Notes: a model not told the origin generated them from the sequence alone. A DNA stretch of 32,000 nucleotides from Propionibacterium freudenreichii subsp. freudenreichii (GCF_000940845.1 NZ_CP010341.1:2400001-2432000), one strand, 5' to 3'; shown: positions 8,029 through 31,355, counted from the first letter of the stretch. Numbers and translations are program-made.

Positions 8029-8372
8029 CGTTTCGCGGGGATCGCGAGGACCTGGCTGATCGTGGCGATCGCGTCAGGTGCCCGGTAGCTGGCGTAGGTG
8101 AAGAACGACCGCAGCGCCGCCCGGCGGGCGTTGCGGGTCGCGACGGAGTTCCCGCGCTCGGTTTCCAGGTGCTGGAGGAACCCGCCGATCAGGTCTGCGT
8201 CGAGATCGGCCAGCGTCAACGCCGATGGCGCGATCCCGGTGGCCCGCTCAGCGTAGGTCAGTAGGAGCCGGAACGTGTCGGCGTAGGCGGCTTTCGTGTG
8301 CGGGCTGGCATCCAGATGCCGGTCGAGCTTGTCGGTGAAGAACCGTTGCAGCAACGGCGCGAGGTCACTCAT
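8029..8372 (-). pseudogene. RIT third tyrosine recombinase (ritC-type), N-terminal SAM-like domain fragment cut by ISL3 copy 1
   Basis: MSDLAPLLQRFFTDKLDRHLDASPHTKAAYADTFRLLLTYAE...NARRAALRSFFTYASYR is a phage-integrase N-terminal domain. The native sequence stops at ...AIPAKR where the IS IRL begins. The ATG at 8372 overlaps the ritB stop. Confidence 0.85.
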
Positions 8373-9296
8373 CACCGCCCCCTCTCGCTTGGATGCGCTC
8401 CGCGAGAGCAGCCGCCAGTTCGGGAGTGTTCGACAGATACCAGTAGGTCGCCTCCGGGCCGACGTGTCCGAGGAACGCCGACAGCACCGGCATCATCGCG
8501 TCGACATCGCCGCCGGTTCGGATGTGCCCGATCAGGGTGTTCGTCGCGAACGAGTGCCGGAAGTCGTGCAGCCGGGCGGCCGGCTCGGTCGGCCCGCCGG
8601 CCAAGCCAGCGGCCTCGCGGATCTCTCGGAACGTGTTCCCCGCGGTTGAGCGGGCGATCCGGGTGCCTCGGCGGGCGACAAACACCGCGGTCGTCTTCGG
8701 GACCGGGAACGTCCGATCCCGTAGCCGCCGATACCTGCGGATCGCGGTCATCGTCGTCGGGCGGAGTGGGACGAGGCGGGACTTGCCGAACTTCGTGTCC
8801 GTGACCCGCACCCAACCGCTGCCATCACCGGCATCGTCGTCGATGGTGATGTCGTCGTCGTTGAGGTTCCTCGCTTCGCTGATCCGCATCCCCGTCACCG
8901 TCAGCAGTCCGAGTAGCGTTTGCCAGGAAGCCGCCCGGACTCGTGGGGTCAGCCTGCCGCGACCAGCAGCGTGTCGATCTGCTGGTCGGTGAAGATCCGC
9001 GGGCGAGGACGATGAGCGCCGTAGGGTCGTCCGTCCAGGACGGGGACCTCGGTCGCGGGGTCGAACCAGGCGACATGCTCGGCGAACTGGCGGACATAGT
9101 TCAGTCGCTCCAGCACCGTGCCGCGGGAGAACTGTGCTGCCCACGCGGTCGCCAGATCCCGGCGGATCGTGGGCTCACCGGCGTCTTCCATCCAGCCGAC
9201 GAACGCATCCAGAGTCTTGCCTGGCGCGACGAGCTTGAACCCGAGTGCCCGCCGGGTCGCCAGGTAACCGTCCATCAGATCGCGCAACCCGCTCAT
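8365..9296 (-). pseudogene. RIT second tyrosine recombinase (ritB-type) with a 1-nt frameshift near 8950
   Basis: The N-terminal part (9296 to 8949, ...IFTDQQIDTLLVAAG*) and the catalytic part (...LTPRVRAASWQTLLGLLTVTGMRISEA...HDFRHSFAT...LGHVGPEATYWYL) are in different phases. The ATG at 9296 overlaps the ritA stop as ATGA. Confidence 0.8.
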
Positions 9297-10234
9297 CGTG
9301 GACACCTGCCCAATGACGCGGCCGCCGGCCATTCGGGTGCGAGAGCGGTGAGCCGGTTCTTGTCGACCTTGGCGTAGAGCGCGGTCGTGCGTAGATGCGC
9401 GTGGCGTAGCAGCCCCTGGACCTCCTGCAACGTCGCCCCAGTGGCGAGCATCCCGGTCGCGAACGTGTGCCGCAGCCGGTGTGGGCCGAACTTCTCCACC
9501 CCGGCCTTGATGCAGATTTGCCGGATCGTCCCGCAGACACCGTTGGCGCTCAGTGGCTGGACCGGATCGATGACCGTCCAGAACACCTCCTCGCCCTGGA
9601 CCCTGCCGCCGCGGCCGTGGAGCACGTAATCCTCCAAGGCGTGGCCGACCTCGTCGGGCAGTGGGAGCTCATCGACACGGTCGCCCTTGCCCCGGATGCG
9701 TAGGCTTCCGGTGCGCCAGCCGATGTCGTCGAGCCGAAGGCCGGCGATCTCACAAGCGCGCAGCCCGAGCCCGGTAAGAAGCAGCAGGATCGCCCGGTCA
9801 CGCAGCCCTTTCGGTGAACGCAGATCGAGAGTGTCGAACAGTGCCTCGATCGTGCCCGCCGGCACCGGGTCCGGAATCGATGAGAGTCGCCACGCCGCCG
9901 CGTGCGGCACCACCCCGGACAGGTCCTGTCCCATCCGACCGGAGCGGTGAGCGTACTGCAGAAACGAGCGCAGCATCACCAGCTGCTTGCCCAACGTCGA
10001 TGCCTTCAGCCCACGCGCTGCTTCCAGGTCCACCCACTCGATCAGCATCGCCGCGGTCAGCTTCCGCAGCGACTCCTCGACCGGCGCGGGCAGCCACTCC
10101 ACGAATGCTGCGACGCGAGCCGTGTACGCGGCAGCCGTGCACTCCTGCGCTGATCGCTCTTGGAGCAGCCACCTCTCGAACTCATCCAGCACATCCCGCA
10201 CGTCGGCGCGGCGCTGATCACGATGAACCACCAT
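9293..10234 (-). CDS. RIT first tyrosine recombinase (ritA-type), apparently intact
   Basis: 313-aa ORF with an N-terminal SAM-like domain and catalytic residues in GLRACEI, HRLRHTFAT and LLRHAHLRTTALYAKV. Confidence 0.9.
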   Translation of the reverse strand: MVVHRDQRRADVRDVLDEFERWLLQERSAQECTAAAYTARVAAFVEWLPAPVEESLRKLTAAMLIEWVDLEAARGLKASTLGKQLVMLRSFLQYAHRSGRMGQDLSGVVPHAAAWRLSSIPDPVPAGTIEALFDTLDLRSPKGLRDRAILLLLTGLGLRACEIAGLRLDDIGWRTGSLRIRGKGDRVDELPLPDEVGHALEDYVLHGRGGRVQGEEVFWTVIDPVQPLSANGVCGTIRQICIKAGVEKFGPHRLRHTFATGMLATGATLQEVQGLLRHAHLRTTALYAKVDKNRLTALAPEWPAAASLGRCPR

Positions 10235-10313
10235 CTCGGTCCTCCTCGACCTGAAGCCGAGCGATCCCAGCGACCGCCCCGGTCAGATCAAGCGAACCCC
10301 GACTCCAGAGCCA

Positions 10314-10412
10314 ATGGTTATGTTGACCGGCTCAACCATTCACCCCTGCCCCGCCTGGGCGCTCACCGAGCCGGTCAACATAACCCCGAGGTCGACATAC
10401 CATCGCCAGATC
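10314..10412. repeat. RIT terminal module (ritA side): perfect 18-bp inverted pair with a 34-nt spacer, plus 27 bp
   Basis: GGTTATGTTGACCGGCTC (10316-10333) and GAGCCGGTCAACATAACC (10368-10385) are exact reverse complements. The whole 99 bp equals the reverse complement of 30594-30692 with 1 mismatch. Confidence 0.9.
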
Positions 10413-10467
10413 ACTGCTCGAGACCGGAGGCTTCAGACCCCGACTACACCCTCAATTATGAAGAGCC
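10396..10467 (+). mobile_element. ISL3-type 3' tail relic (last ~19 codons plus terminal IR)
   Basis: Reads HTIARSLLETGGFRPRLHPQL* and then ends ...CTACACCCTCAATTATGAAGAGCC. It is colinear with the 3' end of the intact copies (HYVARSLLETGGFRPQLHRGL*...GATGAGCC). Confidence 0.8.
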
Positions 10468-10817
10468 GGTCAAGGCCGAGGGACGCTGCCCGCCCCTGCC
10501 GCACCACCCGTTCCGCACAGCGAGGAAGACCTTACCGATGTCGATCCGACTGGCGTCGGAGGGGACCTCCAGGTGACCAGCGTCCCGTCGGCAGTGCGTG
10601 GGTCTACAACCACCGACTTAAACCGCTATGGCCGCCGGTGATTGACTTCGTGCGCCGATCAGCTGCTGGGCGTCCGGAAGTCCTTGCTATCTATTGCGGC
10701 GGTCTCGGATGTCGTCGCGCTATGCGTTGATACCGCACTTGATTCCACTCGATGGGACAATCGGTTTGGGATGCATAGAGGGGTTGTAGAAAGGGCATTC
10801 AGAAGGGGCGGTAGGGG

Positions 10818-11120
10818 ATGGCCAGAGACTATGACGCGCCGCGCGAGACGGATGAGGACCTGACCGAGACGCCGGTGGCGGAGATGCCGGGGCGTGAGCC
10901 GAGCGTGGCCACGATCGATGATGACGAGGACCTGCTCCTCGCGGAGACATTTGAGCTTCCTGGGGCCGATCTGTCCGGTGAGGAACTCACCGTCCAAGTC
11001 GTCCCGAAACAGAAGGACGAGTTCACCTGCACCCGGTGCTTCCTGGTTCACCACCACAGCCAGCTGGTCAGCACCGTGGGCAGCGAGCCGGCGGTGTGCG
11101 CCGAGTGCGCGACGGAGTGA
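10818..11120 (+). CDS. DUF4193-family protein
   Basis: 100-aa acidic protein MARDYDAPRETDEDL...FELPGADLSGEELTVQVVPKQKDEFTCTRCFLVHHHSQL...CAEC. The pattern matches my recollection of the conserved actinobacterial DUF4193 family. Confidence 0.85.
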   Translation: MARDYDAPRETDEDLTETPVAEMPGREPSVATIDDDEDLLLAETFELPGADLSGEELTVQVVPKQKDEFTCTRCFLVHHHSQLVSTVGSEPAVCAECATE

Positions 11121-11123
11121 GCG

Positions 11124-11387
11124 GTGCCGGACCTGGGCGGGCTGGTCGTGGTGCTCATCTTGGCCGTCTGCCTCGTCAGCATGCTGCTCCTGGCCCCGCT
11201 CGTTGAGGCGTGGCTCTGGCGGGCGATCGGCCACGAGAACCACACCGGTGACAACTGGCCTGCCGCCGAGGATGAGTCGCCAAGCCTTGCAGGTCAGGCG
11301 CGGCCTTCGCCTTCGGTGAGCCCGGCGTCCGTGGAAGCGGCGTCGCTTTCTCACCGCCGCAGCACGGGCGGGGCGCCGGTGTCGTGA
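11124..11387 (+). CDS. Small hypothetical membrane protein
   Basis: GTG start 4 nt after the DUF4193 stop. One clear TM segment (LVVVLILAVCLVSMLLLAPLV). High third-position GC. The stop overlaps the next start as GTGA. Confidence 0.5.
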   Translation: MPDLGGLVVVLILAVCLVSMLLLAPLVEAWLWRAIGHENHTGDNWPAAEDESPSLAGQARPSPSVSPASVEAASLSHRRSTGGAPVS

Positions 11388-11858
11388 CGGGGCGACGGCT
11401 GAACGGCAGAGAGCTCGGCCTGCCCGGTCTGGCGGTAGCGCTCAGTGAGGCCACTGACTGGCGCGGCGAGGCACTCGAGCAGCTCGGCTTGGTGCGGTGG
11501 GAACCAGGGATGGGCGCGGTGCCGGTGCTGGAGGGCATCACCGCGGACCTGACGGCTCGCCGGTGGGTCCTCATCGAACGGTCCGGGCCCCGCGAGGAGC
11601 CCACGCTGCTCGTCTCTGGCTTGTTCACCGGCCCGCACCCGATCGTATGGGAGCGTCTGGTCCACCACGGCGGCGGACTCCTCCTCGCCGTCCACGACTC
11701 CGCACCGGAGGGTCAGATGCCCTCATTGTGGGTCGGTGTGGTGCGCGCCCACGTGGGTCGCGCAACCGACATGACGCCACCGGGCCCGCCGGTATATAGT
11801 GGTGCCCCGGGCTTCGGCGGCACCCCGTCTGCCACCAGGGCAGGAAGAATGACAGGAG

Positions 11859-13997
<2,139 letters not shown>

Positions 13998-14066
13998 CCC
14001 GCTGCGCGGTACTGCACCTGCGGTCATTCCGGCGCCGGGTCGGTCCGCAAGGTGGTGTGAGGTCAC

Positions 14067-14495
14067 GTGAGCGAACACGGCGGTTTGGAGGAAGACAGCT
14101 GGGCAACCTCGTTCCGGTCCCGTCTCAACTTCCTCGTGGCTATGGTGCCCCCGCCGTCTGGTGAAAAGTGGACCAACGAACTCATCGCAGAGGAGTGTTT
14201 GGCCAGGGGAGTGGAAGCCACTTACTCCAATATCGCCCATCTCAGAACGGGCCGCCGGACGAACCCGTCAGCCCGTCTCGTGGGCGCTCTAGCACAGGTT
14301 TTCGGGGTCGACGTTGACTACTTCTTCAACGATCTCCGCGCCCATCAGATTCAGAAGCAGTTCCTGGCGCTGCAACAGCTCCGCGAGTCCGGAGTGAAGA
14401 TCGAGGGCATCGCAGCCCGCGGTGAGGGTCTGAACCCCGACCTGGTGATGGAAGCCATCAGGGCTCTGCGCCGTGACTCAGACGACCGACGATGA
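14067..14495 (+). CDS. XRE-type HTH DNA-binding protein with EspR-like architecture
   Basis: FRSRLNFLVAMVPPPSGEKWTNELIAEECLARGVEATYSNIAHLRTGRRTNPSARLVGALAQVFGVDVDYFFND, followed by a helical C-terminal half. This parallels the mycobacterial EspR layout as I recall it. Confidence 0.75.
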   Translation: MSEHGGLEEDSWATSFRSRLNFLVAMVPPPSGEKWTNELIAEECLARGVEATYSNIAHLRTGRRTNPSARLVGALAQVFGVDVDYFFNDLRAHQIQKQFLALQQLRESGVKIEGIAARGEGLNPDLVMEAIRALRRDSDDRR

Positions 14496-14504
14496 CGTCG
14501 TAGA

Positions 14505-14978
14505 GTGACTCACCAGCTTGTGATCATCGACAAGCGGGGGGAGAGTCCGATGAACGTTCGACACGTGTTTTCGACGGTTCTTCGTGATGTCAGGTCAGTG
14601 GACGAGGCCATCAAAGCGACGAGCGCTGCCACAGGGCGACCCATCTGTCTCCAAGAGGTCTCATACCTAGGACAGCAGGGCCCTTCCGGTCTTCTGGTGC
14701 AGTCCGGATCATGTGATGTCATCCAGCTACCATCCGGCGTATCTGGTCGCCGTCGGGTCGGGATCATTGGTCATGAGCTTGGCCACCTCCTTCTGGGGCA
14801 TCAGCCCGAGGATCTCTCTGGCTTGTTTTCCATCGACCCGGACATCGTCAAACGGATCTTGGCTCGTCACCACTTCGACGACAGGAAGGAGCGAGACGCT
14901 GAGCTGATTGGCACGATGCTGGCTCAGACCATCGGAAGGAATCTTCAGTTCGAAGGTCTGTGGAGCTGCCTGTCATGA
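14505..14978 (+). CDS. ImmA/IrrE-like HEXXH metallopeptidase-domain protein
   Basis: IIGHELGHLLLGH motif in a 140-157 aa protein directly downstream of the HTH gene. Start uncertain (14505 or ATG 14550, MNVRHVF). Confidence 0.65.
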   Translation: MTHQLVIIDKRGESPMNVRHVFSTVLRDVRSVDEAIKATSAATGRPICLQEVSYLGQQGPSGLLVQSGSCDVIQLPSGVSGRRRVGIIGHELGHLLLGHQPEDLSGLFSIDPDIVKRILARHHFDDRKERDAELIGTMLAQTIGRNLQFEGLWSCLS

Positions 14979-15058
14979 CGATTGACCTGGTGCTTGTTGG
15001 CTTGTGGCTGGTGGGGATCGTCGACCTGACACGCACTCTGCGAGGACGATCTGATCCT
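14975..15058 (+). pseudogene. First 28 codons of a membrane protein, truncated by ISL3 copy 2
   Basis: The ATG at 14975 overlaps the peptidase stop as ATGA. Reads MTIDLVLVGLWLVGIVDLTRTLRGRSDP and then runs into the IS IRL at 15059. Confidence 0.5.
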
Positions 15059-15102
15059 GGCTCATCACAATCCACGGTGTAGTGGGGGTGTGATGGTGGC
15101 TG

Positions 15103-16488
15103 GTGTGTCGGTCACCGGGTAGGGGTCGAGGTCTTCCGAGGATGGGGGTTCTCACACCAACCCATCGGGAAGACCTCGACGTGCCTGACGCTACCTTCGC
15201 GACCCCTGACCTGACCACCTTCTGCCGGCTCGACGAGCTGGGCCTGGTTGCGGTTGGTCAACGACTCGAGCCTGGACGGGCGGTGATCGCTTGTCAGGTT
15301 GTCGAGCCGGACGACTGGTGCCACCGCTGCGGCCAGCATGGTGTGTTGCGGGACACGGTGGTGCGTCGGCTCGCTCACGAACCGCTCGGGTGGCGGCCGA
15401 CCCTGCTGGAGGTGCTCGTCCGCCGGTACCGGTGCGCCGACTGCGCTCATGTGTGGCGCCAGGACACGAGCCGGGCCGCGGAGGCCAAGACCCGACTGTC
15501 GCGCCGCGGGCTGCGGTGGGCGTTGGAAGGGATCGTGGTGCGCCACCTCACCGTGGCCCGGATCGCCGAAGGCTTGGACATCAGCTGGAACACAGCGAAC
15601 GACGCGGTGCTCGCCGAGGGTAAGCGGGTGCTGATCAACAACCCGCACCGGTTCGACAAGGTGACCACGATCGGCGTGGATGAGCACGTGTGGCGGCACA
15701 CCCGTCGCGGCGAGAAGTACGTGACCGTGATCATCGACCTGACGCCGGCAAGGACGAACAGTGGACCGGTCAGGTTGCTGGACATGGTCGAGGGCCGCTC
15801 CAAGAGCGTGTTCAAGCAGTGGTTGTCTGAGCGTGACCAGGCGTGGCGCGACCGGGTGGAGGTCGTCGCGATGGACGGCTTCACCGGATTCAAGACCGCC
15901 ACCACCGAGGAGTTGCCTGATGCGGTCGCGGTGATGGACCCCTTCCATGTCGTGAGGCTCGCCGGCGACGCCCTCGACCGGTGCCGCCGTCGAATCCAAC
16001 AGGATCTGCACGGCCACCGCGGCCGTGCCGGCGACCCGCTCTACTCGGCCCGGCGAACCCTGCACACCGGAGCATCGCTGCTCACCGACAAACAGAAGAC
16101 CCGGCTTGACGCCCTGTTCGCTGACGAGGCGCACACCGAACTTGAGGTCACCTGGGCGGCCTACCAACGCATGGTCACCGCCTACCGCGACCCCGACCCT
16201 GCTCGCGGCCGAGACCTCATGAACAAGCTCATCGCCAGCCTCGCCAGCGGCGTCCCAGCAGCGCTGGTCGAACTCCGCACACTGGGCCGCACGCTGAAGC
16301 AGCGGGCGGTCGACGTGCTGGCCTACTTCGACCGGCCCGGCACCAGCAACGGTCCCACAGAGGCGATCAATGGCCGCCTCGAGCACCTCCGCGGATCAGC
16401 CCTCGGCTTCCGCAACCTCACCCACTATGTCGCCAGATCCCTCCTCGAAACCGGCGGGTTCAGACCTCAGCTACACCGTGGATTATGA
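15103..16488 (+). CDS. ISL3-family transposase
   Basis: Identical 461-aa ORF. The probable functional start is GTG 15181 (VPDATF...), immediately after the leader hairpin. Confidence 0.95.
   Translation: MCRSPGRGRGLPRMGVLTPTHREDLDVPDATFATPDLTTFCRLDELGLVAVGQRLEPGRAVIACQVVEPDDWCHRCGQHGVLRDTVVRRLAHEPLGWRPTLLEVLVRRYRCADCAHVWRQDTSRAAEAKTRLSRRGLRWALEGIVVRHLTVARIAEGLDISWNTANDAVLAEGKRVLINNPHRFDKVTTIGVDEHVWRHTRRGEKYVTVIIDLTPARTNSGPVRLLDMVEGRSKSVFKQWLSERDQAWRDRVEVVAMDGFTGFKTATTEELPDAVAVMDPFHVVRLAGDALDRCRRRIQQDLHGHRGRAGDPLYSARRTLHTGASLLTDKQKTRLDALFADEAHTELEVTWAAYQRMVTAYRDPDPARGRDLMNKLIASLASGVPAALVELRTLGRTLKQRAVDVLAYFDRPGTSNGPTEAINGRLEHLRGSALGFRNLTHYVARSLLETGGFRPQLHRGL
15125..15180 (+). promoter_or_regulatory. 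Leader stem-loop ending at the transposase start codon
   Basis: GTCGAGGTCTTCC-GAG-GATGGG, a 14-nt loop, then CCCATC-G-GGAAGACCTCGAC gives 13-bp plus 6-bp stems. The 3' arm contains the purine-rich GGGAAG just before GTG 15181. Present in every copy and, with changed sequence, in the diverged relatives. Confidence 0.6.
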
Positions 16489-16494
16489 TGAGCC

Positions 16495-16906
16495 CCTATG
16501 GGTACTGGCCATGGCCTACGGGCCGGTGCGCCTGGTCCTGCTGGCGGTGATGGCGATCGGGGCGGTGAGTGCCACCCTGATCCTGGGAGCCGACTTGTGG
16601 GAGCGCCCACGGCGGCGAGCCCAACGTGAGCAGGTCATCCTGTTCAATTTGGCCACCACCGCGACCGTGGCCATCGGGGTTGTGGTGTTCTACCTCGTCT
16701 TATTCATCCTGTCCTGGGTCGGCGCGCTGCTGCTCATCGACGAGCAGGTACTGGCCGGTATCGCCGGGAACCCAGTGAACGCTTTGGACTACGCGAAGAT
16801 CAGCTGGCTCACCGCCAGCCTGGCCACCGTGGGCGGAGCACTAGGAGCTGGACTGGAGGACGACGATGTGGTGCGCGCCGCTGCCTACACCCGGCCCAGC
16901 ACCTGA
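16495..16906 (+). pseudogene. C-terminal (multi-TM) part of a conserved membrane protein; the N-terminal part is at 25661-26384
   Basis: Reads LWVLAMAYGPVRLVLLAVMAIGAVSATLILG...DDDVVRAAAYTRPST* in phase from the 8-bp duplication CCTATGGG. Confidence 0.85.
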
Positions 16907-16919
16907 CACAGCCCCAGCA

Positions 16920-17445: not shown

Positions 17446-17529
17446 CCTCAAGGGCGCTGCGCGTCGCTGCGCGATGCCGCCTGCGGCGGCACCCTTGACT
17501 GCCACCCTCCACGCACCTGCTGGCAACTA

Positions 17530-22030: not shown

Positions 22031-23998
22031 TCAGACTGTGATCACATCGCCGAGAACGACCGATCGGGTTCGCGGAATCCGGAAGGCCGTGGTGCGGTCG
22101 GCCTGGTTCCTCGACAGCGTGAGGTAGACGAGCCGCCGCCAGGTGGCCATCGGGCATCTGGATGCCAATGGGTCGGTGTCGTCGGCGCGACGTATGTTGG
22201 CCACTGACAGGAAGTAGACAGCTTCCTGCATGTGCATCCGGGGGTCGGGGAGCTGGTCCATGACCAGCGCCAGGGCGGACGGAATGTTCTGGGAGTCGGC
22301 GAAACCGACATGGCACTCGACGTATGCGATGCCGTCGTCGGGGTCCCCGAGGTCGGTGACCCTGATCCGATCCCGATGAGGGATGTGGGAGATGTTCTCA
22401 TCAACCATCGAGATGATGACGTTGTGCTCATGGAGCACATGGTTGAACTGGATATTGTTGCGCAGCGCGAGTGGTGTGGTGACCCGGCCCGGATGCGGGT
22501 AGATCGCCAAACCGGGAACCCGAGTCGGTCGATCGTCCTTGATACGAGCCAGGAAGTCATCCAGCGGCCCCTCGGCGGAGGCACGACTGGAGACGACGAA
22601 CGCGGTGCCCTTGCGCCACGCCGTCATGATGACGATGATCGCACCGGCGATCACCAACGGAATCCAGCCCCCCGAGGTGATCTTGAGCAGATTGGCCGCG
22701 AGGAGAGACAGCTCCAGGCCACCGATGACCACTGCTATCGGCAGAACTCGCCACCACGACCAGTCCCAGACGAGGCGGACCAGGATCAGGAAGAGGGCCG
22801 TGGTGAGCAGCAGGGTTCCGGTCACGGCGAGTCCGTAGGCGGTGGATAACCGTGCCGACGTGCGGAAAGCGCCGATGAGCAGCAGAACACCGAGGTAGAG
22901 CATCCAGTTGACCTCGGGAATGTAGATCTGGCCGCCCTCCTCCCGAGAAGTGTGGCGAATCGAGAAGCGAGGCAGCAGGCCAAGCCTGGAGGCTTGATGG
23001 GAGACCGAGAACGTGCCGGATATCACAGCCTGGGAGGCAATGATGGTGGCCAGAGTGGCGATCACCACCAGCGGGACCTGTGCCCACTGCGGCGCAGTTC
23101 GGAAGAAGGGGTTGTCGATCCAGGCGGGATGAAGAATGATCATGGCGCCCTGCCCGAGGTAGTTCAGCATGAGAGCAGGCAGCACCACCGAGAACCAGGC
23201 GATGCGGACCCGGCGGCTGCCGAAGTGGCCCATGTCGGCGTAGAGCGCCTCCGCTCCCGTGACGGTCAGCACGACCGCCCCCATGGCGACGAAAGCCGTC
23301 CACGGGCGCTCAAGGACGAACAGCAGGGCCCACTGGGGTGACAGCGCCATCAGGATCTGAGGACAGCGAAGAATCCACGGTGCCCCCAGCGCGGCGATGC
23401 TGATGAACCAGACCAGCATGATGGGTCCGAACGCCCGTCCAATCACCGCGGTACCCCTCTGCTGGATGACGAACAGGGCGGTGAGGATAACCACCGCGGC
23501 GGGCAGCACCATCCGAGTCAGACCGGGATCGATGACGGCGGCACCCTCGAGGGCGCTCATCACCGAAATCGCGGGCGTGATCATTGAGTCCCCGTAGAAC
23601 AGCGCCGCCCCCACCATTCCGATTCCCATCGTCACAGCGGCGAGTCGGCAGCGTGAGGGGATGTGGCGTTGCAGCAGAGCCATGAGGGCCAAGATGCCGC
23701 CCTCGCCCCCGTTGTCGGCACGCATCACGAGGGTGACGTACTTGATGCAGACGATGAGCAGGATGGACCAGATGACCAGCGAGATGATGCCGATGACGTT
23801 GTCGCGGCTGGGTACGGCGGTGTGGTGATCGATCGCGAAGACGGTCTGCATGGAGTAGAGGGGTGAGGTGCCGATGTCGCCGAACACGACACCCAGCGCA
23901 GCGAGCACGAGCCCTCGAGCGGGGGAATACGGTGCCTTGGATGGTCTCTGTCGCCATAAAGGCAGACTCCGGTGATCGCTGTGTGTGGACACGAGCAT
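22031..23998 (-). CDS. kup: KUP-family potassium uptake transporter
   Basis: Hallmark LAALGVVFGDIGTSPLY, a multi-TM body and a cytoplasmic C-terminal domain. I prefer ATG 23998 (AAGGGAG RBS 4 nt upstream) over the track start at 24094. Confidence 0.93.
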   Translation of the reverse strand: MLVSTHSDHRSLPLWRQRPSKAPYSPARGLVLAALGVVFGDIGTSPLYSMQTVFAIDHHTAVPSRDNVIGIISLVIWSILLIVCIKYVTLVMRADNGGEGGILALMALLQRHIPSRCRLAAVTMGIGMVGAALFYGDSMITPAISVMSALEGAAVIDPGLTRMVLPAAVVILTALFVIQQRGTAVIGRAFGPIMLVWFISIAALGAPWILRCPQILMALSPQWALLFVLERPWTAFVAMGAVVLTVTGAEALYADMGHFGSRRVRIAWFSVVLPALMLNYLGQGAMIILHPAWIDNPFFRTAPQWAQVPLVVIATLATIIASQAVISGTFSVSHQASRLGLLPRFSIRHTSREEGGQIYIPEVNWMLYLGVLLLIGAFRTSARLSTAYGLAVTGTLLLTTALFLILVRLVWDWSWWRVLPIAVVIGGLELSLLAANLLKITSGGWIPLVIAGAIIVIMTAWRKGTAFVVSSRASAEGPLDDFLARIKDDRPTRVPGLAIYPHPGRVTTPLALRNNIQFNHVLHEHNVIISMVDENISHIPHRDRIRVTDLGDPDDGIAYVECHVGFADSQNIPSALALVMDQLPDPRMHMQEAVYFLSVANIRRADDTDPLASRCPMATWRRLVYLTLSRNQADRTTAFRIPRTRSVVLGDVITV

Positions 23999-24224
23999 CT
24001 GACTCCCTTGTTGACAGCGGCAGCGCCACTCACCCTGGATGCGCTCCGCCCGACCGACCTGATGGCGCACTGCACTCTGGGCAGGCGCAATCATCGATCA
24101 AATCGCGGCACGCGCAGGAGTGGCGCGATCCTCACGAAATCCATACGGTGGAAGGGGCAATGCTTGCAGAATCCTCACGGCCGCAAGGGTCCCCTCCGCG
24201 CTTCCAGGAATGATCGCCGAGCTG

Positions 24225-25660
24225 GGCTCATCATAATCCACGGTGTAGCTGAGGTCTGAACCCGCCGGTTTCGAGGAGGGATCTGGCGACATAGTGGGTG
24301 AGGTTGCGGAAGCCGAGGGCTGATCCGCGGAGGTGCTCGAGGCGGCCATTGATCGCCTCTGTGGGACCGTTGCTGGTGCCGGGCCGGTCGAAGTAGGCCA
24401 GCACGTCGACCGCCCGCTGCTTCAGCGTGCGGCCCAGTGTGCGGAGTTCGACCAGCGCTGCTGGGACGCCGCTGGCGAGGCTGGCGATGAGCTTGTTCAT
24501 GAGGTCTCGGCCGCGAGCAGGGTCGGGGTCGCGGTAGGCGGTGACCATGCGTTGGTAGGCCGCCCAGGTGACCTCAAGTTCGGTGTGCGCCTCGTCAGCG
24601 AACAGGGCGTCAAGCCGGGTCTTCTGTTTGTCGGTGAGCAGCGATGCTCCGGTGTGCAGGGTTCGCCGGGCCGAGTAGAGCGGGTCGCCGGCACGGCCGC
24701 GGTGGCCGTGCAGATCCTGTTGGATTCGACGGCGGCACCGGTCGAGGGCGTCGCCGGCGAGCCTCACGACATGGAAGGGGTCCATCACCGCGACCGCATC
24801 AGGCAACTCCTCGGTGGTGGCGGTCTTGAATCCGGTGAAGCCGTCCATCGCGACGACCTCCACCCGGTCGCGCCACGCCTGGTCACGCTCAGACAACCAC
24901 TGCTTGAACACGCTCTTGGAGCGGCCCTCGACCATGTCCAGCAACCTGACCGGTCCACTGTTCGTCCTTGCCGGCGTCAGGTCGATGATCACGGTCACGT
25001 ACTTCTCGCCGCGACGGGTGTGCCGCCACACGTGCTCATCCACGCCGATCGTGGTCACCTTGTCGAACCGGTGCGGGTTGTTGATCAGCACCCGCTTACC
25101 CTCGGCGAGCACCGCGTCGTTCGCTGTGTTCCAGCTGATGTCCAAGCCTTCGGCGATCCGGGCCACGGTGAGGTGGCGCACCACGATCCCTTCCAACGCC
25201 CACCGCAGCCCGCGGCGCGACAGTCGGGTCTTGGCCTCCGCGGCCCGGCTCGTGTCCTGGCGCCACACATGAGCGCAGTCGGCGCACCGGTACCGGCGGA
25301 CGAGCACCTCCAGCAGGGTCGGCCGCCACCCGAGCGGTTCGTGAGCGAGCCGACGCACCACCGTGTCCCGCAACACACCATGCTGGCCGCAGCGGTGGCA
25401 CCAGTCGTCCGGCTCGACAACCTGACAAGCGATCACCGCCCGTCCAGGCTCGAGTCGTTGACCAACCGCAACCAGGCCCAGCTCGTCGAGCCGGCAGAAG
25501 GTGGTCAGGTCAGGGGTCGCGAAGGTAGCGTCAGGCACGTCGAGGTCTTCCCGATGGGTTGGTGTGAGAACCCCCATCCTCGGAAGACCTCGACCCCTAC
25601 CCGGTGACCGACACACCAGCCACCATCACACCCCCACTACACCGTGGATTGTGATGAGCC
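24225..25660 (-). mobile_element. ISL3-family insertion sequence, copy 3 (1436 bp)
   Basis: Same ends as copy 1. Plus-strand flanks are CCGAGCTG (left, IRR side) and CCCATAGG (right, IRL side). Confidence 0.95.
24231..25616 (-). CDS. ISL3-family transposase
   Basis: Identical 461-aa ORF. Confidence 0.95.
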   Translation of the reverse strand: MCRSPGRGRGLPRMGVLTPTHREDLDVPDATFATPDLTTFCRLDELGLVAVGQRLEPGRAVIACQVVEPDDWCHRCGQHGVLRDTVVRRLAHEPLGWRPTLLEVLVRRYRCADCAHVWRQDTSRAAEAKTRLSRRGLRWALEGIVVRHLTVARIAEGLDISWNTANDAVLAEGKRVLINNPHRFDKVTTIGVDEHVWRHTRRGEKYVTVIIDLTPARTNSGPVRLLDMVEGRSKSVFKQWLSERDQAWRDRVEVVAMDGFTGFKTATTEELPDAVAVMDPFHVVRLAGDALDRCRRRIQQDLHGHRGRAGDPLYSARRTLHTGASLLTDKQKTRLDALFADEAHTELEVTWAAYQRMVTAYRDPDPARGRDLMNKLIASLASGVPAALVELRTLGRTLKQRAVDVLAYFDRPGTSNGPTEAINGRLEHLRGSALGFRNLTHYVARSLLETGGFRPQLHRGL

Positions 25661-26384
25661 CCCATAGGTCCGCGGCCACCAATGTCAGTATGTCGGTGGC
25701 CGCTGCCACGACCAGCGCCCGGGAGAGCCGGGCCACGAAGGCCCAAGGCTGGTTGGCGCGGATCATGCCCAGCAGCAACCGCACGTTGCCGCTCAGCACT
25801 CGGGCCGTGAACTGCACGACGTTGTCGTCCGGGCGTTCGTCGAGGTCGGTGGACAGCTGGTGGGCTCTTCGAGCAAGATCCCGCTGGGCGTTGGGGTCTT
25901 CGGCGTCGTAGCCCAGGAGCTGCCCGACCACGTGCACGGTGGTCTCTTGCACCTTCTGCCGCACGTGCACGGGTCCCAGGGTTGGGACGGAGACCAGTCC
26001 TACCCCGTGCACGGGGCTGAGCTGGGTGAGCACCGGACGTCGGCCGGTCTTCAGGGGGATCTCGGTGAGCACCACGGCCAAATCCCAGTTCTCCTCCAGC
26101 ACGCGGTTTCGGGCCGCCTCCCGCAGGTCCAAGGTCTCGGTGGGTGGATCGACCAGCCGGTCTTCGGCCATCTTCAGTTGCCAGCGCACTCCCGGATACC
26201 GCTGCACCAAAATCTTGCGCACCGAGGTGGTGACCTCGGGGCCGAGCACCGCATTCAGGGATGGTGAGACCACCAGGCCGATGAGCAGCTCGGCATCGGA
26301 AAGGGGTTCGGCAGGATCGGCGGTGGATCGGCAACGCTCAGCAGTCACCGCTCCATGGTGAGGCAACCACGGTCGGATTGCCAC
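25661..26384 (-). pseudogene. N-terminal (cytoplasmic domain plus first TM) part of the membrane protein completed at 16495-16906
   Basis: ...LVDPPTETLDLREAARNRVLEENWDLAVVLTEIPLKTGRRPVLTQLSPVHGVGLVSVPTLG...AATDILTLVAADLW, then an IS-derived tail. A conserved-hypothetical type; I cannot name a family. Confidence 0.8.
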
Positions 26385-26822
26385 TGGCTCGATGGAGCCC
26401 CCAAGGTTTCGTGCAGCACCGCGGGCCGGATTCGGTGGTCGCCTCGATCCCGGAAAGAGCGGTGCTGCTCACTGAAATCCTCTCCCCGCCGACGCCGCCA
26501 GCGCGAAGACATCACAGCCAGCGGGCCCGGGACCTGCCGGTGTCGAGGACGACTTCTCGATGATGCTGCAGTGACGGATCGGTTGAAGTGCTTCGGCGGT
26601 GTGGGAGCAGTGATCAGCGTGGGGCCGGTCGATTCCGTTCGGACAGGTGATGCATCGACTGCCCAGCGGCAGGTGCGGTACTGATGCGGGGGTACCCGGT
26701 GCAGGGGTGTCAAGGCCCAGCTCCGAAGACGGCAAGCCGGGCACGTGAAAGGCGAATTATAGCCCGCCGCAACCCGAGCGGGAAGGCATGTGTGGCACGA
26801 GGCGCCGAAGACGGGCCGGGCG

Positions 26823-26851
26823 TTTACTGCAGAGATAAATATGCTTATCCT
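26823..26851 (+). promoter_or_regulatory. Sigma-70-like promoter candidate in an AT-rich island
   Basis: TTTACT, a 17-nt spacer, then TATCCT, within the only AT-rich patch (about 26825-26870) of an otherwise ORF-poor 890-bp region. Confidence 0.3.
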
Positions 26852-27274
26852 GGTAAGGTCCGCGACATTTTGTAAGGCCCTGAGAGCGGGCCCGTCGCTG
26901 GTCCACCACGGACCGACGGGCTCGGGGATGGGGCTGAGGACCCGGAGAGGAGCCACGGCCGTGGCCGAGCTGATGCGCAAGGACCTTGATGCGTTCGGGT
27001 CTTTCTACCGCCACCTGCACCGACGGGGTGCTGGTGATTTCGGGCTCCGATGCCGAGTCGGAGCCAGTGGCAGAAGTCCACGAAGATCGCAGGCACCGCG
27101 GCTGAACGGCCGATACCGAGGGGGAGGAAGGGAGGCCAGGGCTGCTGATGTGCCCGGACTGTTCCGCAATTTCTCTTCCTAACTTTCCGTCCACTCCCGA
27201 CCCAGGTGCCCGGCAACCCCGGGTGCAGGCCACCGTCCGGGTCGGATCGTCACCACGAACAGGAAACGATAAGC

Positions 27275-27754
27275 ATGTCCCATCCCTCCCCTCTTCCACC
27301 CACTGCTTCGGCTCATTACCAGGTCCTGCGCACAGTGCCCTCCTATGACGAGGCTCAGCGCCTTGTCGACCGACTCTCCGACGCCGGGTTCCCGGTTGAG
27401 CACGTGCGCTTGGTCGGCACCGATCTGCGCCTGGTTGAGCAGGTCACCGGGCGGATGACCTACGGCAAGGCCGCCCTGTACGGGGCCGCCTCCGGAGCCT
27501 GGCTGGGATTGCTCATTGGCTTGCTGTTGGGTCTTTTCACGGTCGTGGGGTGGCTGTCGGTAATCCTGTGGGCGGTACTCCTGGGCGCGGTGTGGGGGCT
27601 GATCTTCGGGTTGCTGGGCCACGCGGCCACCGGCGGGCGCCGGGACTTCAGTAGCGTCCAGGGCCTGGAGGCGTCCTCCTACGAGATTCTTGTGGAGGCC
27701 GAGTACTTCGAGGCGGCCACGGCCAAGCTCGACGCCAGCCGTCCCACGACTTGA
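27275..27754 (+). CDS. YflT/general-stress-type membrane protein
   Basis: N-terminal soluble domain VLRTVPSYDEAQRLVDRLSDAGFPVEHVRLVGTDLRLVEQVTGR followed by two Gly-rich TM helices. ATG 27275 is preferred to the track start at 27206. Confidence 0.7.
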   Translation: MSHPSPLPPTASAHYQVLRTVPSYDEAQRLVDRLSDAGFPVEHVRLVGTDLRLVEQVTGRMTYGKAALYGAASGAWLGLLIGLLLGLFTVVGWLSVILWAVLLGAVWGLIFGLLGHAATGGRRDFSSVQGLEASSYEILVEAEYFEAATAKLDASRPTT

Positions 27755-28080
27755 CCGCCAAAGGCCCGGGCCCGGACCGGGTGCTGGCCCACGCCCGAGT
27801 AAGTGCTGAGGGCCGTGGCCCTCTGCGCTCCCCCGACACTCACCGCTGGAACGGATTCAGGAGCGGATCTCGCCGGGAAGCAGGGACGTCGGCGTGCCTG
27901 TCACCACCAACCGGGAGCCTGCTCGGCTCTGCCGAGCGTGATCCCCGCAGTTGCCTGCAGTGGACCCCGACAGCTTCGTCCCCAAGACCCTCTGTCAGGG
28001 GCATCCCAGGTAATCACCCGCGGGACCGTCCGAGGCATTCTCCGGCCACAGCGATGGCCTCGACCGGATCGGAGCAGCCC

Positions 28081-29314
28081 GGCGGATTCAAGCGGTCAGT
28101 GCAACGAGTCCTGTGAGATGAGGCAGTCACTGATCACAGGAGGATCCGGATGCAGGGCAGGCACGGTCATCTCAGCCGGGAGCAGAAGCAGCTCGCGCTC
28201 AGGCTGCACGGGAAGGGCTGGCGGCTGGTCGACATCGCGAAGGAGATCGGCTGCAGCGCGCCGATGGTCGGCATCATGGCCCGCACCGGCAGGCACCTTG
28301 ACGCCAGGCCGTTCGGGTGGGAGCCACGTCAGGGCTGTCTGACGATCGACGAGCGCGAGCAGATCCTGCTGGGCATCAATCGCGGCGATACCTTCACCGC
28401 GATCGCCGAGCAGCTGGGGCGTGCGGTGTCGACCGTCAGCCGTGAGGTGAAGCGCGGTGGGGGTCGCTGCGGCTACTCGGCGTGGCGTGGTCATGAACGT
28501 GCCCGCGAGCAGGCGCGCCGACCGAAGCCGTTCAAGCTTGCGTCGGGCCGGCTGCTCGAGGAGGTTGCCAGCCGGCTGGAGCAACTGTGGTCACCTGAGG
28601 AGATCGCGGCGCGCCTACGGTTGGATCACGCCGACGACCCGGAGATGCGCGTGAGCCACGAGACGATCTACCAGTCGCTGTTCGTGCAGGGCCGAGGCGA
28701 ACTGCGCCGTGAGCTGGCGCGGTGCCTGCGGTCCGGAAGATCGGCCCGCAAGCCCCGCCGAACCACGGACGGTCGCGGCCGCATCCCCGGCATGATCATG
28801 CTCAGCGAGCGCCCCGCAGAAGCCGACGACCGCGCCGTGCCAGGCCACTGGGAAGGTGATCTCATCCTCGGCGAGGGCAGCCGCAGCGCCATCGGCACGC
28901 TCGTTGAGCGCTCGACGCGAATGACACTGCTGCTGCACCTGCCCGACGGCAAGAGCGCCGAGCAGGTCGAGGCCGCGATGCGCGCCGCAATCAGCAAGCT
29001 GCCGTCCTCGTTGATCCGAACGATCACCTGGGACCAAGGCGCGGAGATGTCCAAGCACGCCGCGTTCTCCATCGCCACAGGAATCCCGATCTACTTCTGC
29101 GATCCCCACTCGCCCTGGCAGCGGGGGAGCAACGAGAACACCAACGGCCTGCTGCGCCAGTACCTACCCAAAGGCACCGACCTGAGCGTCGTCAGCCGCG
29201 AGGAGTTGGACGCGATCCAGGACAGCCTCAACGGACGCCCCCGCAAGACGCTGGGCTATCTGACACCATCAGAGAAGCTCGCAGAGTTCCTTGCGCCCAT
29301 CGCTTGAATCCGCC
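28081..29314 (+). mobile_element. IS30-family insertion sequence (1234 bp)
   Basis: IRs GGCGGATTCAAGCG (28081-28094) and CGCTTGAATCCGCC (29301-29314), extending imperfectly to about 26 bp. No matching flanking duplication. Confidence 0.85.
28150..29307 (+). CDS. IS30-family transposase
   Basis: 385-aa ORF with N-terminal HTHs, GHWEGDLI, ITWDQGAEM and SPWQRGSNENTNGLLRQYLPKG, typical of IS30 DDE transposases. Confidence 0.93.
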   Translation: MQGRHGHLSREQKQLALRLHGKGWRLVDIAKEIGCSAPMVGIMARTGRHLDARPFGWEPRQGCLTIDEREQILLGINRGDTFTAIAEQLGRAVSTVSREVKRGGGRCGYSAWRGHERAREQARRPKPFKLASGRLLEEVASRLEQLWSPEEIAARLRLDHADDPEMRVSHETIYQSLFVQGRGELRRELARCLRSGRSARKPRRTTDGRGRIPGMIMLSERPAEADDRAVPGHWEGDLILGEGSRSAIGTLVERSTRMTLLLHLPDGKSAEQVEAAMRAAISKLPSSLIRTITWDQGAEMSKHAAFSIATGIPIYFCDPHSPWQRGSNENTNGLLRQYLPKGTDLSVVSREELDAIQDSLNGRPRKTLGYLTPSEKLAEFLAPIA

Positions 29315-29629
29315 ATCGAGTTCGCCCTGCGCAGCTCACGCACTTCCTTCTCCAGCTCGACCAGGCGCTGGGACTCGCTGGTCGTGGTCCCGGGACGGTG
29401 CCCCTCGTCAACCTCGGCCTGCACGACCCAGTTCCTCAGAGTCTCAGGATTGATCCCGAGCTGCTCGCCCACACGGCGAAACGTTCCCGACCTCGTCGAT
29501 GGATCGCGCCGTGACTGAACTGCCATCCTCGTGGCTCTCTCCCGAAGTTCGTCGGGGTACTTCCTCGGTGCTGCCATGCTCCTCATCCTCCCGTGGATTC
29601 AGAGCCTCCACCAGACCCGGGGCGATTCA
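29315..29629 (-). mobile_element. IS3-family fragment 2 (left end plus 5' part of orfA), cut by the IS30 element
   Basis: Strong RBS GGGAGGATGAGGAGC, then the ATG at 29577: MAAPRKYPDELRERATRMAV...LGINPETLRNWVVQAEVDEG...LEKEVRELRRAN. This ends at the IS30 IRR. The candidate terminal TGAATCGCCCC lies at 29629-29619; that outer boundary is approximate. Confidence 0.7.
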
Positions 29630-29925
29630 CCAGGCCGACACCGAGCTGCGGGGCGATGGCACGTATCGACTCTGCGCGCGGGCCTCCCTCGCGCGCCTGG
29701 CGCTCGTAGACCATCCGCACGGCGCGGTCACGCAGCTCGGGACTGAACTTCTTGGGCATACTCCGATTCTCCTTGCTGAGACTCGGAACAGAACCCAGGA
29801 CGCTTCACCCGCACCCCAAAACACGAATCGCGCCACCGTTAGTAAACGATGACGCGACTCATGACATACGGGGTGCCTGAGTAGTACGTTCGGCAACTCC
29901 GCCCCCAAGACAAAAACCCTGGTCA
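29630..29925 (-). mobile_element. IS3-family fragment 1 (left end plus first ~42 codons of orfA), interrupted by fragment 2
   Basis: AAGGAG RBS, then the ATG at 29758: MPKKFSPELRDRAVRMVYERQAREGGPRAESIRAIAPQLGVG. Homology then breaks. The candidate terminus TGACCAGGG is at 29925-29917 (tentative). Confidence 0.55.
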
Positions 29926-30047
29926 ACCGCCTAGACCGTGGGGTCTACGAGGTCTCTCGACGTCCCCAGGATACCGCTCCGAAGGATGATCGTGGCCCTG
30001 TTGCGAGCACTGTCGAGACGGCTCAAACTTTTCTGACCGACTCCGAG

Positions 30048-30332
30048 GTGGACGCCCTCGTCGGCGACTACCTGGCCGGGATGAGCGTCAAGGCGCTCGC
30101 TGAGAGGTACGGCATTCACCGCGCCACCGTGTTCTCCCATCTGCGTCGCCGCAAGGTGCCGAGCCGCCGACCAAGGCTGGGGATCGACGAGAAGGCGGAG
30201 GCCGTGCGGCTCACCCGAGCGGGCGTCTCGATGCGGGCCATCGGTCGCCGGATGGGCGTGGACCGTAAGGCCGTGCGGGCTGCACTGGTCGAGGCTGGAC
30301 TCATCGTGGACGAGGCGAGCGATGACTCGTAG
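30048..30332 (+). CDS. Small protein with two tandem HTH units (possibly the C-terminal remnant of a longer recombinase-associated protein)
   Basis: Two repeats of the type L..AGMSVKALAERYGIHRATVFSHLRR and RLTRAGVSMRAIGRRMGVDRKAVRAAL. The frame is open upstream to about 29937, right at the IS3 fragment boundary, so the 5' end may be missing. Confidence 0.5.
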   Translation: MDALVGDYLAGMSVKALAERYGIHRATVFSHLRRRKVPSRRPRLGIDEKAEAVRLTRAGVSMRAIGRRMGVDRKAVRAALVEAGLIVDEASDDS

Positions 30333-30363
30333 CTGCGGTTCCGATTTGCTGATCCGTCGGTAG

Positions 30364-30399
30364 CTCTCGGCGCACCTCGTCGGTAACGAGCGCCGAGAG
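30364..30399 (+). terminator. Perfect 10-bp stem hairpin after the HTH gene
   Basis: CTCTCGGCGC, a 16-nt loop, then GCGCCGAGAG. No U-tract. The 3' arm overlaps the GAGAGG RBS of the next ORF. Confidence 0.3.
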
Positions 30400-30405
30400 G
30401 AACCG

Positions 30406-30538
30406 ATGATGACCAGCTTGAGTGAGGTCGCGAATGACGAGCGCACCGCGAGGATGGTGCTGTCCATGCTCATCGAACCCAATGACCCGGTGACAGGACG
30501 CATCTTGTCCAGGCTCGGAGCAGTCGAGACGCTTTGGC
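30406..30538 (+). pseudogene. N-terminal 44 codons of a DprA/Smf-like gene, truncated by an ISL3-type end
   Basis: MMTSLSEVANDERTARMVLSMLIEPNDPVTGRILSRLGAVETLW resembles the N-terminal region of actinobacterial DprA as I recall it. The sequence then becomes the IS terminal IR at 30539. Confidence 0.5.
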
Positions 30539-30610
30539 GGCTCATCGCGAATGAGAGTGTAGGAGCGGTCTGAATCCGCCGGCTTCGAGGAGCGATCTGG
30601 CGATGGTATG
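30539..30610 (-). mobile_element. ISL3-type 3' tail relic (mirror of 10396-10467)
   Basis: The plus strand starts GGCTCATCGCGAATGAGAGTGTAG. The minus strand reads HTIARSLLEAGGFRPLLHSHSR*. Same length as the other tail, with about 73% identity to it outside the shared 17 nt. Confidence 0.8.
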
Positions 30611-30692
30611 TCGACCTCGGGGTTATGTTGACCGGCTCGGTGAGCGCGCAGGCGGGGCAGGGGTGAATGGTTGAGCCGGTCAACATAACCAT
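30594..30692. repeat. RIT terminal module (ritC side), inverted copy of 10314-10412
   Basis: 18-bp arms at 30621-30638 and 30673-30690. The module starts 9 nt after the ritC stop codon (30700-30702). Confidence 0.9.
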
Positions 30693-30699
30693 CGCGGTG

Positions 30700-31355
30700 T
30701 CACCGGTTCTTGAGGAACGCGATGAGAGCGTCGGATGCCTTGTATCGGGCTGGTGGCCGCTCGTCGAGCGCGGGAACGCGTTCGAGGGTTCGCTGCTTGA
30801 GTTCCAGGTCGGCATGCAAGTAGATCTGCGTGGTCTGGATGCTCGCGTGCCCGAGCCAGAGCGCGATGCTGGCGGTGTCGATGCCGGCGTGCAGGAGGCT
30901 CATCGCGCAGGTGTGCCGCAGCGTGTGCGGCGTGACGTTCTTCCCTGTCAATGAAGGACACCTCTCGGCCGCGGTCGCGGCGTGCCGGGTAACGAGCTTC
31001 CCAACGGCAGCCCTGGTCAGGGGTGTCCCGCTGTTGGTCGGGAACAGCGGCCCCTCTCGCGCTGGTGGGAGCTCGGCGAGCCAGGCCGTGAGGAGCCTGA
31101 CGGTGTTCTTCTGCAACGGGATCACGCGTTGCTTGCGGCCCTTCCCGACGCATTCGAGTTGGCTGTGTGGTCCGAGCTGAAGGTCACCGACGCGCAGGTT
31201 GATGAGTTCGCTGACGCGGAGTCCGGTTTGGATGCCCAGGTGCAGCAGGAGCCGGTCGCGGCGACCGAGCCAGGTCCGGGTGTCCGGGGCAGCGATGAGC
31301 GCCTCTGCTTCGGGGCGGTGAGGAACGACACGAGCGTGGTCTTGGTGCGTTTCGC
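30700..31355 (-). pseudogene. RIT third tyrosine recombinase (ritC-type), C-terminal catalytic fragment
   Basis: ...PEAEALIAAPDTRTWLGRRDRLLLHLGIQTGLRVSELINL...HTLRHTCAMSLL...LGHASIQTTQIYLHA. Cut at 31355 by another ISL3-type IRL. The phase differs by 1 nt from the N-terminal fragment, with an indel in the C-run at about 31312-31320. Confidence 0.85.

Follow-up and report, generated by a model that had tools for sequence, protein, structure and literature searches.

A recombinase pseudogene of Propionibacterium freudenreichii DSM 20271 divided between the left ends of two different ISL3-family insertion sequences

The stretch of DNA examined here, 32,000 nucleotides from Propionibacterium freudenreichii DSM 20271 (CP010341, locus tag RM25) and hereafter called the window, contains the two parts of a tyrosine recombinase gene, ritC, each of which adjoins the left terminal inverted repeat (IRL) of a different insertion sequence (IS) of the ISL3 family. 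The window is high-GC actinobacterial DNA whose exact-protein look-ups match P. freudenreichii, and its source assembly was made from 198x PacBio data and annotated with Prodigal throughout. A SAM-like N-terminal domain (8029-8492) flanks the left joint and a catalytic domain (30700-31353) flanks the right one, both belonging to a single tyrosine recombinase. On the left, an ISL3-family element of 1436 bp with its transposase on the minus strand has its IRL tip at position 8028, and on the right, a different, plus-oriented element of about 70-77% DNA identity has its IRL tip at position 31356. At each joint, next to the IS tip, the plus strand reads CGTTTCGC (8029-8036 and 31348-31355). An earlier reading made from the DNA alone (the sequence-only reading) had described this arrangement, namely an identical 8-mer beside the IRL of a minus-oriented ISL3 copy and beside that of a diverged, plus-oriented ISL3 element, with the N- and C-terminal parts of one recombinase beyond them. 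Every part of that description stood, and the two elements are ISPfr6 (left) and ISPfr1 (right). The open reading frames (ORFs) annotated across the joints are chimeric, AJQ91838.1 on the left and AJQ91865.1 on the right, and the neighbouring products are RM25_2131 and RM25_2132.

Within the window, CGTTTCGC occurs three times against 1.4 expected, a count that is not significant alone and that would in itself fit a chance match; misassembly across repeats would be the other form of artefact. The proof that the pair is a true 8-bp target duplication comes from empty sites. In more than 20 other P. freudenreichii assemblies, ritC is uninterrupted and contains a single CGTTTCGC, which is what the sequence-only reading had proposed to look for. 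In the alignment to one of the loci and contigs of relatives and metagenomes that we compared with the window (designated by L-numbers), window 8029-16494 corresponds to L001 12206-3733 and window 25031-31357 to L001 18522-12197, so that both window copies fall on the same single 8-mer; two extra matching bases beyond it, GG, are a chance identity with the IS tip. When the halves are fused through a single 8-mer, the reading frame crosses the joint (...AIPAKRTKTTLVSFLT). The 1-nt phase slip that the sequence-only reading had noted on joining the halves is real and does not belong to the joint, being instead an older deletion about 32 nt into the C-terminal part, near 31316. Independent short-read assemblies and metagenomes that represent the same clone contain the two joints as well, the left one in L023, L024, L025 and L026 and the right one in L040, L041 and L042, all 100.000% identical to the window except for L042, which differs at 1 of 5752 nt. 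With the empty site, the continuous frame, this recurrence and the 198x PacBio data of the source assembly in agreement, both chance and misassembly are excluded for all practical purposes. As an observation apart, the 3569-bp contig L025 (Logan ERR9514505) is k-mer based and nevertheless crosses the whole ISPfr6 copy of the left joint with unique DNA on either side, which is unexpected for a three-copy repeat.

The gene ritC is part of a RIT (recombinase in trio) element, that is, a trio of neighbouring tyrosine recombinase genes enclosed by terminal inverted repeats (PMC10214605). The locus is like other RIT elements in having the gene trio and the repeats, with PF00589 and PF02899 matches on ritA, ritB and both halves of ritC. 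It differs in that the trio is here the target only, is decayed by frameshifts in ritB and ritC, and lies inside ISL3-type ends. The 4-nt ritB deletion and the 1-nt ritC deletion are common to all P. freudenreichii copies examined, relatives with a whole ritC included. Because the 1-nt deletion is shared by strains in which ritC is uninterrupted, it is older than the split, and the RIT was already a dead pseudogene before ritC was cut.

Table 1. Features of the window, in order of position.
Feature	Position	Strand	Remarks
Block A	left of 6593		TIM, Dak, GntR, MFS, cyclase, 3' part of amidohydrolase gene
ISPfr6 copy c1, ISL3 family, 1436 bp	6593-8028	-	Product AJQ91837; PF01610
Target duplication copy 1, CGTTTCGC	8029-8036	+	Touches IRL of c1; single copy in relatives' empty site
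ritC N-terminal part, SAM-like domain	8029-8372	-	ORF call extends into the IS as a 135-aa chimera, AJQ91838
ritB	8365-9296	-	Frameshift, 4-nt deletion near 8959
ritA, intact, 313 aa	9293-10234	-	Identical protein in several other species
ritA-side terminal repeat	10314-10468		Inner 93 nt (10314-10406) RIT inverted repeat; outer 62 nt (10407-10468) ISL3-type end
Rest of block B	10469-15058		DUF4193, GlgX, two small ORFs; terminates with CTGATCCT at IRL of c2
ISPfr6 copy c2	15059-16494	+	AJQ91847; right-end flank CCTATGGG at 16495-16502
Block C	16495-24224		Old ISL3 remnant, resolvase, AbiE toxin, HSP20, IS481, HSP20, Kup K+ transporter
ISPfr6 copy c3	24225-25660	-	AJQ91857; IRL flank CCCATAGG at 25661-25668
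Block D	25661-30537		Hypothetical protein, YflT, IS30 (ISPfr16), small HTH genes
ritC-side terminal repeat	30538-30692		Outer 62 nt (30538-30599) ISL3-type end; inner 93 nt (30600-30692) RIT inverted repeat
ritC C-terminal catalytic part	30700-31347	-	Older 1-nt deletion near 31316; ORF call begins inside ISPfr1, 221 aa, AJQ91865
Target duplication copy 2, CGTTTCGC	31348-31355	+	Touches IRL of ISPfr1
ISPfr1, first 645 nt	31356-32000	+	ISL3 family; IRL 31356-31390; continues past window end

The three ISPfr6 copies of the window (c1, c2 and c3; Table 1) are 100% identical, and each encodes a 448-aa transposase of the ISPfr6 family that matches PF01610 (E=2e-57). At 6593, the right inverted repeat (IRR) of c1 has the flank TGAATACC, which adjoins the 3' part of a disrupted amidohydrolase gene; its IRL is at 8028. 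The diverged element of the sequence-only reading, ISPfr1, is 1427 bp at full length, encodes a 435-aa transposase (PF01610, E=9e-56 for the full-length protein) and was named by way of a full-length protein from metagenome contigs, a search with the N-terminal 183 aa having missed the family. The two transposases are 68% identical, and over their tips of 24 nt the IRLs agree at 19 positions. Both ends of both elements begin GGCTC.TC...GTGTAG in inverted repeats of about 24-35 bp, and both elements have the DDE transposase, terminal inverted repeats and 8-bp target duplications of the ISL3 family. Such duplications surround ISPfr1 at 7/10 P. freudenreichii copies examined, the remaining 3 having flanks swapped by recombination (as seen in L055 versus L057), and for ISPfr6 they are GGTATTCA in L074 and L076 and CCTATGGG, split between c2 and c3. 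A scan of the genome collection with the ISPfr1 IRL matched only in Acidipropionibacterium and at contig ends of metagenome-assembled genomes (MAGs). A foreign origin of the ISPfr1 copy, or a chimeric join with Acidipropionibacterium, is nevertheless ruled out, as ISPfr1 is multicopy across P. freudenreichii. In the plasmid collection, there was no match to the whole 23.3-kb span between the joints and none to ISPfr1.

Some further observations concern the places where these elements insert. The duplications of ISPfr1 and ISPfr6 have common cores, for example SSSAAACS and GGTA, which points to a common target motif or to chance. In the Propionibacterium MAG contig L028 (56-64), an ISPfr1 IRL is flanked by T followed by TGAATACC, the same 8-mer as the ISPfr6 duplication in window 6585-6592, in otherwise unrelated surroundings; it was considered as the partner joint of c1 and ruled out, its flanks being unrelated to the amidohydrolase locus. 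Members of the family also occur with their tips only 5 bp apart. In L020 (19767-19771), the order is ISPfr6 IRR, GGTAT, and the IRR of another ISL3-family element, X, and in L077 (8644-8648) it is the IRL of X, TTTGT, and the IRR of ISPfr1, where L078 has 1.7 kb. These two pairs are independent and suggest insertion, or attack by an end, right beside the tip of a resident relative.

A simple insertion of a single IS would leave the IRL and the IRR of one element around the duplication. At ritC both joints are IRL, one of ISPfr6 and one of ISPfr1, and a simple insertion is therefore excluded, as the sequence-only reading had argued. That reading had also named an alternative, independent hits on two RIT copies, which finds no support in relatives, where there is one RIT at this place and its flanks match both halves.

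We tabulated the flanks of ISPfr6 over all loci, and they resolve into two duplication pairs, GGTATTCA, connecting block A to a chromosomal amidohydrolase/MFS locus (Z; GntP, AP-endonuclease, MFS and the 5' part of the amidohydrolase gene), and CCTATGGG, connecting D to C. The IRL flank of c3, CCCATAGG, is the reverse complement of the IRR flank of c2, so that these two are one duplication, split by recombination. In relatives, blocks C, D and B make up an island that has one ISPfr6 inside it and lies between two direct ISPfr6 copies in the amidohydrolase gene, as in a cointegrate, with the GGTATTCA duplication split to the outer sides of the island. The amidohydrolase gene is intact in L064 (322 aa, neither IS nor island), and L074 and L076 have the IS alone at this site with its duplication. 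The strains that carry the island form two classes, which differ by flips between inverted ISPfr6 copies.

The relatives' island and the span 8029-31355 are exact circular permutations of each other. The sequence-only reading had pictured this span as a 23.3-kb circle, which is a valid formal description that matches the relatives' island, and had taken everything outside it as the inserted segment, which holds as a formal equivalence only. Read literally, the picture would mean that the island looped out between direct ISPfr6 copies as a 23.3-kb circle, which facing chromosomal IRLs then captured through ritC. Indirectly in favour of such a history are the cointegrate-like placement of the island between direct ISPfr6 copies, with GGTATTCA split outward, and the strains with the IS only or with nothing at that site. 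Capture would also explain why there are three ISPfr6 copies and would put the 8-mers in direct order with no subsequent flip. However, it requires that the circle, for which no replication function is known, be free at the time of a rare hybrid-end event, and that ISPfr1 lie right beside the remaining ISPfr6 IRL, which no strain shows with the island absent; no circle junction was seen, and an intramolecular route with an inversion and a flip gives the same structure with no circular target. We consider capture of a circle unlikely.

In DSM 20271, the 448-aa ISPfr6 protein has the accessions AJQ91837, AJQ91847 and AJQ91857 only, before those of another genome follow; by this accession list, c1, c2 and c3 appear to be all the ISPfr6 copies of the strain, and all are inside the window. 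As Prodigal was used throughout the deposited annotation, an identical fourth copy would have been called. Five of the six ISPfr6 flanks are the same as in relatives, comprising the IRR contexts amidohydrolase, ISL3 remnant and Kup and the IRL contexts 157-aa ORF and hypothetical protein. The sole change is the Z-side IRL flank, which is now the N-terminal part of ritC. The 121-aa amidohydrolase N-fragment that marks the old joint of Z with the ISPfr6 IRL has no DSM 20271 accession in the protein look-up. ISPfr6 has thus kept its outer flank and changed its inner one, as judged from the accession count and the relatives' contexts, and a single end that switches partner with no copy gained is the signature of a two-ended event.

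Other routes to the same pattern can be narrowed down. Homologous recombination between copies never alters which flank is paired with which end; it cannot change a single IRL context and, acting alone, cannot create the two-IRL pattern. Replicative inversion by ISPfr1 alone or ISPfr6 alone cannot place the IRLs of two elements at one duplication. Three kinds of model remain, namely a two-ended event with the IRLs of ISPfr6 and ISPfr1, successive insertions in one 8-mer, and a tail-to-tail pair moving as a unit.

The latter two, with either a pair of ordinary hot-spot events or an ISPfr1-ISPfr6 unit, would yield the order ritC C-part, 8-mer, ISPfr1, spacer or 8-mer, ISPfr6, 8-mer, ritC N-part, and ISPfr6 recombination would then part the halves. 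The two elements do have similar target tastes (CCCAAACG, GACAAACC and CGCAAACA versus GCGAAACG, and GGTAATGG versus GGTATTCA), abutted pairs of ISL3 relatives exist in L020 and L077, and recombination between ISPfr6 copies is frequent. Nevertheless, this order calls for a fourth ISPfr6 just after ISPfr1, where the DSM 20271 accessions show three, all within the window, and it predicts survival of the Z-side IRL joint, whose marker ORF is without a DSM 20271 accession. The 5-bp geometry of the known pairs is unlike the exact re-use of an 8-mer, a metagenome scan for tail-to-tail joints (an ISL3 tip with the ISPfr6 IRR) found none, and there was no intermediate genotype among the ritC fragment clusters. 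We regard successive insertions and a tail-to-tail unit as very improbable.

The best explanation of the split is the core idea of the sequence-only reading, a single two-ended event that used two inverted IS copies as its ends, with the circle optional. We give somewhat less than an even chance to the specific version set out here, in which ritC was cut once by a transposition that paired the ISPfr6 and ISPfr1 IRLs and inverted the adjacent DNA, followed by a later ISPfr6 flip; its head-to-head starting state, the acting transposase and the order of its steps are what we infer. In DSM 20271, ritC is a degenerate passenger of a stress island bounded by IS. In this version, ISPfr1 and ISPfr6 would have stood head to head with their IRLs facing, where the island meets Z. 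The starting order would have been a Z remnant, ISPfr1 (IRL to the right), a spacer, ISPfr6 (IRL to the left), C, ISPfr6, D-ritC-B, ISPfr6 and A. The transposase of either element would have paired the facing IRLs and cut both from the short spacer, and the freed ends would have joined, 8 bp apart, into CGTTTCGC of ritC on the same chromosome, inverting the intervening DNA and leaving each of the new joints with a single 8-mer. Later homologous recombination between the identical, inverted c1 and c2 would have flipped the block from the ritC N-part to GlgX, putting the 8-mers in direct order 23.3 kb apart, and at least one additional large inversion would have carried the rest of Z some 300 genes away. 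A symbolic replay of this route reproduced the window's order and orientations exactly. On such an intramolecular route the direct order of the 8-mers would be secondary.

A candidate for the starting pair is found in LT576034 (L070), where the MFS gene of Z is followed by ISPfr1 from 1427 to 618, an IS3-family element and ISPfr6 from 902 to 1436 (6456-9078). This chimera is the remnant of ISPfr1 and ISPfr6 with their IRLs facing across about 1.4 kb where the island begins. Its structure implies that two IS3 copies were once inserted in the two ISL3 elements and that a deletion between them followed. In the proposed event, one transposase would have had to recognise and join both ends, whose tips match at 19/24 nt and whose transposases are 68% identical.

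Several points weigh against the two-ended event as we propose it. The IRR of ISPfr1, expected at about 32782, and its outer flank lie beyond position 32000, and the LT576034 pair is a remnant in another strain, its 96-aa junction ORF being without a DSM 20271 accession. The count of three ISPfr6 copies is inferred from a sorted protein-accession list and not from sequence. We know of no experimental demonstration in the ISL3 family of mixed ends from elements with transposases only 68% identical. The route also needs at least three further steps, these being an earlier ISPfr1 insertion, the homologous flip and the large inversion.

The large inversion is required by the present place of the Z genes. 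GntP and AP-endonuclease (AJQ89850 and AJQ89851, by accession offset roughly RM25_0146-0147) lie at a distance of about 300 coding sequences from AJQ91865, in the opposite orientation to that in CIRM-BIA1 (CBL57793-57795), so that at least one further large inversion has occurred; recombination between ISPfr1 copies is its likely cause, and swapped ISPfr1 flanks are seen. The intact 429-aa MFS protein of Z has no identical DSM 20271 product, and its neighbours GntP and AP-endonuclease do have accessions. Both observations bear on another possibility, a hybrid-end event between distant ends whose donor flanks were rejoined by end joining. If, for example, the Z-side ISPfr6 IRL had acted with an ISPfr1 IRL about 350 kb off across the origin, one event would give both joints and the large inversion together, and the MFS gene and 121-aa fragment without identical products could reflect resection at a repaired break. 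However, the chromosome would have to break twice across the origin region and be rejoined accurately, nothing seen demands end joining, and recombination between ISPfr1 copies, exemplified by L055 versus L057, is a simpler cause of the inversion. We find distant ends improbable.

Intramolecular transposition by the inside ends of Tn10 and Tn5 (IS10 and IS50) is known to generate transposon-promoted deletions and inversions. The two-ended event at ritC would resemble it in that two inverted IS copies have their facing ends paired and a nearby target is attacked, the segment between the ends is lost, the adjacent DNA is inverted or deleted, and no IS is gained. As in Tn10-type events, each new joint has one copy of the duplication and relatives have the empty site. 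Unlike in Tn10 and Tn5, the ends come from two family members that differ in transposase and tips to the extent given above, the family is ISL3, whose chemistry is poorly known, and the pair that preceded the event in DSM 20271 is itself inferred. Tandem copies of IS30, IS21 and IS911 form reactive junctions of abutted ends that lead to replicon fusion, deletion and inversion. There, too, close ends of two IS copies act as one end pair, and the arms are joined to a target with a duplication left behind; those junctions, however, consist of IRL and IRR of the same element, whereas here they would be IRL and IRL of two elements. The 5-bp pairs of L020 and L077 offer a parallel to such junctions that is suggestive only.

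For P. freudenreichii, inversions bounded by transposases and copy-and-paste moves have been documented (Deptula et al. 2017, PMC5644110). The likeness to the present case extends to the same species, the same transposases (there called Uma4 protein or ISAar20-like ISL3 family) and large inversions between close strains. In contrast, this locus and a duplication split between two IS elements are not described there, and most of the rearrangements reported fit homologous recombination. Our searches of the literature on the mechanism of ISL3 and on RIT elements within ISL3 found nothing directly relevant.

The event is a variant of known rearrangements by IS pairs and is notable mainly for ends that come from different family members. 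We consider it slightly more likely than not that distinct ISL3 elements, with transposases as far apart as these, can be paired by one transposase and that facing or closely abutted ends of different family members regularly drive inversions and the transposition of blocks in P. freudenreichii. If so, the DSM 20271 ritC split would be a natural record of a heterologous-end event, related but distinct IS in one genome would not be independent, and cooperation between their ends would multiply the end pairs able to rearrange the chromosome. DSM 20271, the type strain of an industrial species, has a derived arrangement of the stress island (HSP20, YflT, Kup, AbiE), which matters where it serves as a reference for synteny or strain typing. 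Otherwise, this is ordinary IS-driven plasticity, and the gene that was cut was already a pseudogene.

The RIT itself recurs elsewhere. Its terminal arms of 155 nt are 90% complementary, with the inner 93 nt near-perfect and conserved across genomes. In our comparison (window 10314-10468 and 30538-30692; L003 9768-14343; L008 9768-18075; L004-L007 9829-12959), the RIT proper is about 3130 bp long and shows 97-99% conservation across six genomes from other species whose RitA is identical, and L003-L008 have intact versions of the trio of 313, 323 and 330 aa. At every locus, 61-62 nt of an ISL3-type end lie outside the RIT, and these outer 62 nt are not the same from one locus to the next. Direct repeats of 8 bp, CCATTTGT and GAGAATCA, surround the complete unit of ISL3 end, RIT, ISL3 transposase and other end in L003 and L008. 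There are two readings, a trio that has ISL3 ends as its target or one that is moved as ISL3 cargo. In strain JS (L044, LN997841, about 13560-15451), an ISPfr6 IRL with the flank TTCTTACC adjoins a truncated ritA of which 161 aa are left; this is a second IRL-side rearrangement in the same RIT and resembles an adjacent deletion.

The 20 kb between the RIT ends (10469-30537) form a mosaic stress island with two HSP20 genes, YflT, Kup, AbiE toxin and a resolvase. Window 17445-19329 has 91% identity to Cutibacterium plasmids and window 25661-26840 has 98% identity to Rhodococcus and Nocardia plasmids, and in the metagenome contig L013 the same island extends into DnaK-GrpE-DnaJ-ClpB. The original insertion target of c2 and c3 was an older, diverged ISL3-like gene (window 16495-17447 and 25661-26384), which is contiguous in L013 (3526-5209, 210 + 363 aa). 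The two HSP20 genes are separated by an IS481-family element (20195-21303) that the other strains seen do not have there, and the IS30-family element ISPfr16 (28081-29314) has a transposase allele that is present in few genomes.

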